Origin: Trypanosoma brucei
Lineage: Eukaryota
Direction of reading: 5' to 3'
Assembly: GCA_000002445.1 (NCBI GenBank)
Contig: CM000207.1
Coordinates: forward strand, 1,920,001-1,984,000
Length of the DNA stretch: 64,000 nucleotides
A program made the position numbers and the translations under genes. Under the pieces are notes generated by a model that saw only the letters and a list, made by a program, of their open reading frames with translations, was not told the DNA's origin and did no database searches. Each line of letters begins with the position of its first letter. Positions within the stretch are counted from its first letter, which is position 1. Positions 2,334-4,372 of this stretch are shown here, one piece after another.

Positions 2334-2460
2334 TATTCTGAGGTTATGTGTGCTTTGTGATTTGCGTAATGGACTAACAGGCTGAACGGTATATCTTTTT
2401 TCTAAATCATCTCGAAGATTCTGTTTGTTTTTAAGAGGATTATCTTGGGACCTACCACGT

Positions 2461-2610
2461 TTTGTTATGTTTTCCCATTCCAATATTTTCCCTTTTTGTT
2501 CAACACTTTTTTATTGTTTCCTTCGGATTTGGTCACTATTGCTCCTTCTTTGTTGATATCCCTATGTTTTGTTGTTTTCGCCCCCCCCCCACACACACAC
2601 ACCACTAAGT
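2461..2610 (+). promoter_or_regulatory. A 150-nt polypyrimidine tract ending in C10(AC)n and followed by an AG at 2608-2609. It is a candidate trans-splicing/polyadenylation signal region in the GK spacer. It repeats at about 6040-6185, 9615-9765 and 13194-13345.
   Basis: Near-uninterrupted T/C run read directly in the sequence. Kinetoplastid mRNA processing uses polyY tracts upstream of AG splice-leader acceptor sites. Confidence 0.5.
2581..2603 (+). repeat. C10(AC)5 microsatellite in unit 1. The homologous tract differs in each unit: C10-T-C(AC)4 at 6159-6178, C11(AC)6 at 9734-9756, C10(AC)7 at 13313-13336.
   Basis: Direct comparison of the four copies. Confidence 0.8.
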
Positions 2611-4372
2611 ACGGTTGCCTTCTATATCAACCACGTTCCGGTCATATGACCTCGTGGAATATCACTTCTGTTTCGTGTCCTTGAAGCATCAGAAGTGGCT
2701 GCGGTTTCTGTTTGTAGGGAGTCGGCTTTTTGACTTGGTTCATTCCGTCGAGGTTTGACACGGGGGATGGCACCAACTGTATTTGCTGTGGGGTTTATAC
2801 TTGGCGCGGTTTCGCACACGCGGATGCCGTGAAAAGGAATGCCACGGCAATAAGTAACACTCAAGACGAATATTGATTTTTTTTTATTTTTCCTTTTTCT
2901 CTCTTTTTTAATGTGTGCCGAAATAATAACAATAACACCAACGGGCCATGATTTGGCTGAATTGGAGGAGTGGAAAAGAAGAATGCATTCACTTTGTGGT
3001 GAAGTGTGATCCTCCATCACTTTCACTTCCTTGAGATCTTCCTGTGCTAATCTTGGCTGGGATACTAAGATATCTGCTGCTGTCACAGTTTTTCTCAATA
3101 CCCTAACTCCATCTCCCACCTTGTAGTAGCGTTAAAGAAAATAATAATATCTAATCAATTTTGTCTGTAAGGTTGCCTGTGTACCTCATGCGTCTCTTTG
3201 TGGTGTTGTGGGGAATGAAGGCGACCGAGATACTAATGTGACGGACCTCGTCGGCTTGCTTTACTGTATACGCAGGATCGTGATGATATTAACCCTGCTC
3301 CGCTACTGAGTGTTGAAGCATGAAACGATATCCTTCAGGGCTACTGATGCCTGCGTGGGCAGTGTATGGGGTGTGACTTCCCTTTCATTAACTTCTCTTG
3401 TACATGCGTTGAAGCACAATCACACATATAAACGTATGCAACCTGGCGAGTGTAGGCCCGCCAGCTACCACGTGGAGTGTATACTCTCTATCTCTACGAC
3501 GGTCGTTCTACCGGGCCAAGAAACGGCGTCTGTTACTCAACAGTGGTTTCATTCATATGTTGTGTGACGTAGTGGCCACATGATGATCCATGTATTCACC
3601 ATATCGACACTGAGTCGGAAACTCCCCGTGACGCACAAGTGATTGTGCATGGAACCGCCCGCACACGCTGTAGGGCACTGACTACTTTGGTACGGGTGCC
3701 ACATCTTCCTTACTTTACTTACCTCTATCCCCCCTCTTCATTTCCCTGTTGCAACCGTACATACCCTAAACACACGTACACTACTATGATTACATCCATA
3801 ATGCGTCAGGACACACGAGTGTGTACGTGACTGTTGGATTCTAACGCGACGCCGTAAGCAATATGATCACTCTCCCATCTTTCAATCACTTCATCTCTCA
3901 CAAGATGTTTATTTTCACTTTTCCCCATCATCTCGCTACATTTGGATTTGAGGTGCGTGTTAGAGTCATTGTTGAATTTTGGCTAATGTTTCGGTTAAGC
4001 ATATGAACGTAAAAGTGGAATGTGTTATGTTCACCCGCTACCATGCTTTGTTCGCTACCTGTCGTGGCTCACCTATTTGATGGTCCGTTGGGTTAGTATG
4101 ACGAAGCTAGAGTCGTTGCTTATCGGTGTAATTTGGTTTTATTGGCATACATTGGTGTAATTTTGTGAAGCTCACCTCCCTTAATCGCCACCCACGTTGG
4201 TGTTATTGCGCTCATACACCTCTGGTAATGCAATCCTCGTCTTCATGTGTTTTCACTGCATTTATATCTACGTCCGCGTCATAATCTGCAATGCCGACCT
4301 GTAGGAGAGTTAGCCACTAAGTTTATTATTATTATTGTTTCAAGAAAGACAAAACTATCCGTAAACGAGAAA

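Follow-up and report, generated by a model that had tools for sequence, protein, structure and literature searches.

In snoRNA host genes, such as the gene of the Trypanosoma brucei long non-coding RNA (lncRNA) "grumpy" or the genes that carry small nucleolar RNAs (snoRNAs) in vertebrate introns, the mature snoRNAs are excised out of a long RNA polymerase II transcript that undergoes mRNA-type processing. In trypanosomatids, snoRNA genes are always oriented like the protein-coding genes next to them, and their long precursors carry a spliced leader (SL) and a poly(A) tail (Kolev 2010, PMC2936537; Michaeli 2012, PMC3273796). One published cluster, TB9Cs4, has the members C1, C2, C3, H1, H2, and H3, the last of which is given in a supplement; its published methylation targets are G1267 of large-subunit (LSU)-alpha ribosomal RNA (rRNA) for C1, A163 and U167 of 5.8S rRNA for C2, and C377 of LSU-beta for C3 (PMC9283944). 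H1 has been tabulated under the small subunit (SSU) and H2 under LSU3 (PMC4855143). Here, we describe the spacers of a glycerol kinase (GK) gene array on chromosome 9 of T. brucei TREU927, and compare them with these systems.

The window analyzed is a stretch of 64,000 nucleotides (nt) of the forward strand (GenBank assembly GCA_000002445.1, contig CM000207.1, positions 1,920,001–1,984,000). A window coordinate is the chr9 v4 coordinate minus 1,920,000; this rule reproduces all four GK stop codons exactly when they are calculated as the published poly(A) site minus the length of the untranslated region (UTR) in Table S13 (Kolev 2010, PMC2936537), and a fifth gene also fits. Up to 15 kb from its start, the window is a head-to-tail array of GK genes, the coding sequences (CDSs) of which (795–2333, 4373–5911, 7948–9486, and 11527–13065, all on the plus strand) follow one another with a period of 3,575–3,579 nt, and each encodes 512 amino acids (aa) ending in -AKL. 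The spacers between them are 2,039, 2,036, and 2,040 nt long, and coordinates below refer to the first of these (2334–4372) unless others are given. With a probability of about 0.9, each spacer consists of a GK 3′UTR of ∼650 nt, one copy of TB9Cs4, and a GK 5′ flank of ∼500 nt that contains the splice acceptor and the 5′UTR.

The snoRNA genes of the spacer

A scan of the spacers with the Rfam covariance models yielded full-length matches to two H/ACA-like snoRNA families in all four spacers, well above the gathering scores of 40 bits for TB9Cs4H1 and 50 bits for TB9Cs4H2. TB9Cs4H1 occupies 3168–3233 on the plus strand (Rfam match, 3168–3229; RF01557, 75.5 bits, E = 2e-14, model positions 1–62 of 62), with the other copies at 6743, 10322, and 13902 on the same strand, and TB9Cs4H2 occupies 3454–3524, again on the plus strand (RF01558, 96.4 bits with E = 1e-18 and 96.4–99.3 bits across the units, model positions 1–71 of 71). 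Both have the trypanosomatid form, one hairpin and then an AGA box with 3 nt left before the 3′ end, and they end in ...GAGAUAC (H1) and ...AAGAAAC (H2). Their folding energies are −23.4 and −25.3 kcal/mol, with z-scores of −2.9 and −2.5, respectively. Compensatory changes were found in 4 of the 18 pairs of the H1 stem among six Trypanosoma species and in 5 of the 20 pairs of the H2 stem among five species, both small samples.

Three C/D snoRNA genes, also on the plus strand, were recognized with a C/D box scan and with alignments of six or seven species in which the boxes, guides, and linkers were compared. These alignments cover up to seven species, L. major among them; the boxes and guides are invariant in them while the linkers drift. 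The first two genes have canonical boxes (by definition, RUGAUGA as the C box close to the 5′ end and CUGA as the D box close to the 3′ end, with a distance of 60–110 nt). The gene assigned to TB9Cs4C1 lies at 3271–3354, with C box GTGATGA at 3280–3286, D′ box CTGA at 3306–3309, D box CTGA at 3344–3347, and a terminal stem of 8 bp; seven Trypanosoma species show no change in its boxes or in either of its guide regions (3292–3305 and 3333–3343). The fifth nucleotide upstream of its D′ box is C, so the predicted target is G, in agreement with the published G1267 of LSU-alpha. The same agreement was found for the gene assigned to TB9Cs4C3 (3783–3869; C box variant ATGATTA at 3786–3792, D box variant ATGA at 3863–3866), which is conserved in six further species, one of them L. 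major, and has no obvious terminal stem. Its guide is GCCGTAAGCA (3851–3860), and a G stands at the fifth position before ATGA, so that the predicted target is a C, the letter of the published C377 of LSU-beta.

The gene assigned to TB9Cs4C2 lies between these two, at 3575–3686 (C box ATGATGA, 3580–3586; D box CTGA, 3678–3681). Its terminal stem consists only of the 4 bp GUAG/CUAC with an offset of 7 nt, and it contains an internal hairpin, the sequence of which differs between species. The guide block at 3603–3619 is invariant at 16 of 17 nt from Leishmania to T. brucei and at all 17 within Trypanosoma; the 16 nt TCGACACTGAGTCGGA stay the same all the way from L. major to T. brucei. The complement of the guide block contains CUCAGUGUCGA, which we take to be the 3′ end of the trypanosomatid 5.8S rRNA and which gives an 11-nt match to the guide. 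In the 5.8S end assumed here, an A and a U stand four positions apart, presumably as A163 and U167 do, and A163 would fit the guide if the D′ box is CGGA at 3616–3619.

The order in the spacer is thus H1-C1-H2-C2-C3, over ∼700 nt (3168–3869) of the plus strand, and these are exactly the five conserved blocks in a spacer that is otherwise unalignable between T. brucei and T. vivax or T. cruzi. We are highly confident that the cluster is present. The individual names C1, C2, and C3 are predicted with moderate confidence; they were derived from gene order and from the agreement of the target letters (for C1 and C3), not from the published sequences. The snoRNAs of the spacer appear to be the already published and catalogued TB9Cs4 cluster, the name of which is said to follow Liang et al. 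in 2005, and are therefore neither unannotated nor new. The first-pass annotation of this DNA, made from its letters, had offered as one option that each unit holds an unannotated processed transcript; repeated non-coding RNA genes are indeed present, five in each unit, but they were already catalogued, two of them as Rfam families.

Two hairpins were considered as the sixth member, H3, and rejected. A weak candidate at 4045–4117 (plus strand; −21.4 kcal/mol, 23 pairs), the only one with an AGA box, is followed by AGA and 3 nt, but its z-score is only −0.81, no better than that of shuffled sequences, and no conservation was seen in T. vivax or T. cruzi. A second hairpin, at 2783–2850, has AUA instead of AGA and no obvious pseudouridylation pocket.

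The cluster and GK across species, and the structure of the array

The gene neighborhood was compared with those of T. vivax, T. cruzi, T. conorhini, T. grayi, T. rangeli, T. theileri, and L. major. In T. cruzi, five to six repeats of a 684-bp unit, H1-C1-H2-C2-C3, stand between DnaJ and a single GK (L006:6127–9708), and the five blocks of T. brucei keep the cyclic order of this repeat. The cluster also lies upstream of GK in T. conorhini (L018:83–1702) and T. rangeli (L016:94–435), as does at least C1 in T. theileri (L005:9658–9724). C1 is upstream and H2-C2-C3-H1 downstream of GK in T. grayi (L019:5772–8477), and repeated orthologues of C2 and C3 are found upstream of GK in L. major (L015:6946–9060). 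In T. vivax (L001) and T. brucei, GK and one copy of the cluster were co-amplified, with periods of 3,368 nt and 3,578 nt, respectively; because the two were amplified together, each unit holds one GK and one cluster. The snoRNA cluster has stayed beside GK from Leishmania to T. brucei, and the co-amplification ties GK copy number to snoRNA gene dosage in T. brucei and T. vivax. In Leptomonas pyrrhocoris, 21.5 kb around the GK locus yielded no TB9Cs4 orthologue. That species has a tandem GK array of its own, of at least 4 copies with a period of 2,968 nt (L020:1097–11539), which looks independent.

The first-pass annotation had described a long, conserved spacer repeated with each GK unit, and this was borne out: the lengths range from 2,036 to 2,040 nt, and the alignment of three spacers has 20 variable columns, an identity of ∼99% between units. 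The GK CDS copies differ at 3–5 of 1,539 positions. This near-identity is the result of array homogenization and is no evidence of function. The accompanying premise, that intergenic regions are usually a few hundred nucleotides long, fails locally. The other gaps between CDSs in the window (n = 16) have a median of 1,070 nt and a range of 253–1,966 nt, so that the GK spacer is the longest gap in the window, yet only about twice the median. When ∼650 nt of 3′UTR and ∼700 nt of snoRNA cluster are subtracted, ∼690 nt are left.

A complete spacer is also present 3′ of the last GK (window 13066–15064), where the homology stops at the equivalent of 4332. In the T. brucei group, the repeat homology upstream of the first GK starts at the equivalent of 3212, inside H1 (L013:8841–10000). 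The boundaries of the repeat unit are thus 3212, within H1, and 4332 at its right-hand end. The stretch 3212–4332, which contains C1, H2, C2, and C3, flanks the array on both sides, 5′ of the first GK and 3′ of the last, and these four snoRNA genes are therefore present in one copy more than GK. UBA1 has the same upstream flank as GK, inherited through this repeat. In the assembly of chromosome 9 of T. b. gambiense DAL972, there are only two GK copies (L009:6139–10000), and remnants of units without GK, homologous to window 3212–4101 and 2544–4372, lie 5′ of the first GK; this pattern may reflect either a genuine deletion or copies collapsed in the assembly.

Ends of the GK mRNA and candidate processing signals

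The predominant GK poly(A) sites on chromosome 9 were mapped to 1919408, 1923033, 1926553, 1930140, and 1933712, which gives predominant 3′UTRs of 651, 700, 642, 654, and 647 nt for Tb09.211.3540, 3550, 3560, 3570, and 3590, with a dispersion of 16–65 nt (Kolev 2010 Table S13, PMC2936537). The sites within the window are 3033, 6553, 10140, and 13712, i.e., 642–700 nt past the stop codons. In the first unit, the GK 3′UTR (2334–2986, plus strand, ∼650 nt) closes with an A-rich stretch at 2972–2986, and the predominant mapped site of this unit is at 3033. In procyclic forms, the GK mRNA ends near 2975–3033. Because polyadenylation occurs there, a T/C-rich tract at 2470–2590 and the first AG after it, at 2608–2609, fall inside the GK 3′UTR.

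The processing that we propose starts with RNA polymerase II reading through the entire GK array. Coupled polyadenylation and trans-splicing would then excise the GK mRNA, and the RNA between two mRNAs would become the snoRNA precursor, most likely with an SL added at AG 3034 or AG 3125 and with a poly(A) tail. This precursor would be trimmed to five or six mature snoRNAs, which would guide 2′-O-methylation (5.8S A163/U167, LSU-alpha G1267, and LSU-beta C377) and the pseudouridylation of rRNA. The order of these steps and the two splice sites are what we infer, whereas the identity of the snoRNAs, their conservation, and the GK poly(A) position come from the data given here or from published mapping. 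The candidate SL acceptors of the precursor are a pyrimidine tract at 3010–3032 with AG 3034 and a second at 3089–3122 with AG 3125, both on the plus strand, just 3′ of the poly(A) zone and ∼40–130 nt 5′ of H1; one of the two is likely to be the SL-addition site, because a poly(A) zone at 2975–3033 fits a coupled acceptor located downstream.

For GK itself, the distal candidate acceptors are the tract 3870–3899 with AG 3903 and the tract 3908–3934 with AG 3951, which would give a 5′UTR of ∼468 or 420 nt, and the proximal candidate is AG 4303, in the weakly pyrimidine-rich region 4233–4332, with a putative 5′UTR of ∼68 nt (all on the plus strand). The proximal acceptor is mildly favored over the distal ones, because the analogous best sites of T. 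cruzi and T. vivax imply 5′UTRs of 67 and 51 nt, respectively. C2 and C3 are separated, within the cluster, by a CT-rich tract at 3704–3747 (plus strand, 44 nt, 89% pyrimidine) bracketed by inverted repeats at 3690–3703 and 3747–3760 (GTACGGGTGCCACA / TGTTGCAACCGTAC). The matching interval is also CT-rich in T. cruzi and T. vivax, and the bracketed tract (3690–3760) may be a processing signal.

The snoRNAs could instead be freed directly from the excised intergenic RNA, in the manner of an intron, from a precursor that is neither trans-spliced nor polyadenylated. The modest quality of the pyrimidine tracts at 3010–3122 would suit this course, as would the fact that no SL or poly(A) site of a precursor was found for the locus in the published tables examined. 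Nevertheless, we consider it unlikely, given that genome-wide data show snoRNA precursors with both an SL and a poly(A) tail (PMC2936537; PMC3273796), and that the poly(A) zone at 2975–3033 sits where an acceptor at 3034 or 3125 coupled to it would place polyadenylation.

The T/C-rich tract upstream of the poly(A) zone is part of a longer element on the plus strand (2470–2609), which comprises the tract, a microsatellite, and the AG. The tract is 78% pyrimidine over 2470–2590 and 74% over 2450–2602 (whole spacer, 56%); it is T-rich, and broken by many G residues. It is closed by a C10(AC)6 microsatellite at 2581–2602, and the AG at 2608–2609 is followed 1,763 nt further by the next GK ATG. The copies of the microsatellite (2581–2602, about 6159, 9734–9756, and 13313–13336) vary in length by unit: C10(AC)6, a shorter interrupted form, C11(AC)6, and C10(AC)7. 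This variation, and the absence of any counterpart of the tract from the T. vivax GK spacer, suggest that the tract is under weak constraint. The first-pass annotation regarded it as the main polypyrimidine tract of the spacer. The tract itself, the C10(AC)6, and the AG were all confirmed, but the tract is not the purest. The purest is at 2877–2909 (plus strand, 33 nt, 97% pyrimidine, 82% T), just 5′ of the poly(A) zone, and the segment scores of both this tract and the CT-rich tract at 3704–3747 are at least as high as that of 2470–2590. The element has the sequence pattern of a trans-splice acceptor, a pyrimidine tract followed by AG, but the poly(A) site that should precede an acceptor by ∼100–300 nt lies 370–425 nt downstream of it. 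It is not the main splice signal; minor use of AG 2608 for SL addition is possible.

Between this element and the poly(A) zone, ∼130 nt before the latter and inside the GK 3′UTR, lies the 68-nt hairpin at 2783–2850 (plus strand; copies at 6359, 9937, and 13517). It is the strongest local fold of the spacer, with a minimum free energy of −35.8 kcal/mol and a z-score of −5.8; none of 200 shuffled sequences was equally stable, and the stability is strand-specific (z = −0.96 on the minus strand). Both natural variants break one pair each without compensation, the hairpin has no match in Rfam, and neither T. vivax nor T. cruzi conserves it, T. vivax yielding only two short, unrelated hairpins. The element at 2470–2609 and the hairpin might together form a regulated alternative-processing module that gives a longer snoRNA host transcript in another life-cycle stage, an idea to which we assign a low probability. 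If it were true, that stage would polyadenylate GK right past the stop codon and add the SL at 2609, and the stage-regulated fate of the GK mRNA would be coupled to the snoRNA output of the same unit.

Another alternative, that the region up to ∼4250 is a GK 3′UTR of 1.6–1.9 kb and that the snoRNAs are processed from the tail of the mRNA, is very improbable; a 1.6-kb 3′UTR had been one option of the first-pass annotation. It has precedents in 27 cases of snoRNAs within 3′UTRs (Kolev 2010, PMC2936537), and the part of it by which the 3′UTR extends through the T/C-rich tract stood. However, the 3′UTR ends near 2975–3033 and not near 4250: the predominant poly(A) sites of all five GK copies lie 642–700 nt past the stop codon, with averages of 587–661 nt, so that a long isoform would be minor at best in procyclic forms.

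There is still less reason to regard AG 2608 as the main GK acceptor, preceding a 5′UTR of ∼1.76 kb that holds the snoRNAs. The pyrimidine-rich tract with its first AG is present, and 5′UTRs of up to ∼2.5 kb and five cases of snoRNAs within 5′UTRs are known (Kolev 2010, PMC2936537), but the upstream GK is predominantly polyadenylated downstream of this AG, with low dispersion, and GK is missing from the table of genes with alternative processing sites in that study. Furthermore, T. vivax has the same layout of GK and snoRNAs without such a tract, and in T. cruzi there are <300 nt between the last snoRNA and the GK ATG. The ∼1.7-kb 5′UTR of the first-pass annotation was therefore not supported.

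The least probable reading, to which we give next to no weight, is that the spacer encodes small proteins: although the open reading frames (ORFs) exist, those of 85 aa (3310–3567, plus strand) and 63 aa (3639–3830, plus strand) both begin with GTG and cross snoRNA genes (the whole of H2 with the 3′ half of C1, and parts of C2 and C3, respectively), the antisense ORF of 165 aa is missing in the second spacer and its region is unconserved in T. vivax and T. cruzi, and none of the three has a Pfam match. The 85-aa and 63-aa ORFs are spurious, artifacts of reading across the snoRNA genes. The GenBank accessions of the five GK proteins are consecutive, an indication that the stretches between the GK genes hold no annotated CDS, and no "NT" novel transcript, protein-coding or other, is tabulated within the GK array (Kolev 2010, PMC2936537).

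Several observations weigh against the composition of GK 3′UTR, TB9Cs4, and GK 5′ flank proposed here. In the identification of the cluster, a scan for a hairpin plus ANA did not locate TB9Cs4H3 in the spacer, U167 does not fit the simple +5 rule for C2, and the boxes of C3 are non-canonical (AUGAUU and AUGA), the variants being kept in all seven species. The predicted guide–target pairing was checked only at the predicted target nucleotide, and for C2 it depends on the 5.8S end that we assumed. With respect to the transcripts, the poly(A) data of Kolev 2010 are from procyclic forms only, the putative transcript boundaries between 3033 and 4372 come from patterns of pyrimidine tracts and AG alone, and the supplements of Nilsson 2010 contain no entries for GK. 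Among RNA-derived contigs with GK, there was one Logan contig, which covers internal CDS only; no record was found of the variant GK protein that copies 2 and 4 encode; and no mention of the intermediate gene IDs (Tb927.9.12560 and similar) was found in the literature.

Consequences and comparison with known systems

The spacer is ordinary and already explained. The composition given above has little consequence beyond annotation, and accounts for a spacer about twice as long as the local median. The locus also shows that a large pyrimidine tract with an AG can sit unused in a 3′UTR, which calls for caution when splice sites are predicted from the DNA alone. Elsewhere in the window, 35370–35926 (plus strand) corresponds by coordinate mapping to Tb9.NT.70, a 556-nt "novel transcript" (Kolev 2010 Table S7, PMC2936537), in the gap between a CDS end at 34996 and a CDS start at 36141. 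A pair of adjacent 586-aa ORFs at 57012 and 60292 was considered as a duplication and rejected, as the proteins are unrelated.

When the spacer is compared with TB9Cs4, they share chromosome 9, the two H/ACA models align over their full length with high scores, and three C/D genes occur in the order of their names; there is no difference in kind, the sixth member, H3, being the one not placed. The likeness to snoRNA host genes, the lncRNA "grumpy" and vertebrate introns, is that the snoRNAs would come from a longer RNA polymerase II transcript; the difference is that neither a function of the host RNA itself nor regulation of a neighboring gene is evidenced here. Like the reiterated snoRNA clusters of trypanosomatids, the GK spacers combine C/D snoRNAs with single-hairpin H/ACA snoRNAs that carry an AGA box, are repeated in tandem, have the orientation of the protein genes beside them, and contain CT-rich tracts between genes (PMC2936537; PMC3273796). 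They differ from these clusters in that the repeat unit includes GK, with one cluster per 3.58-kb unit, whereas in T. cruzi a pure 684-bp snoRNA tandem array adjoins a single GK.

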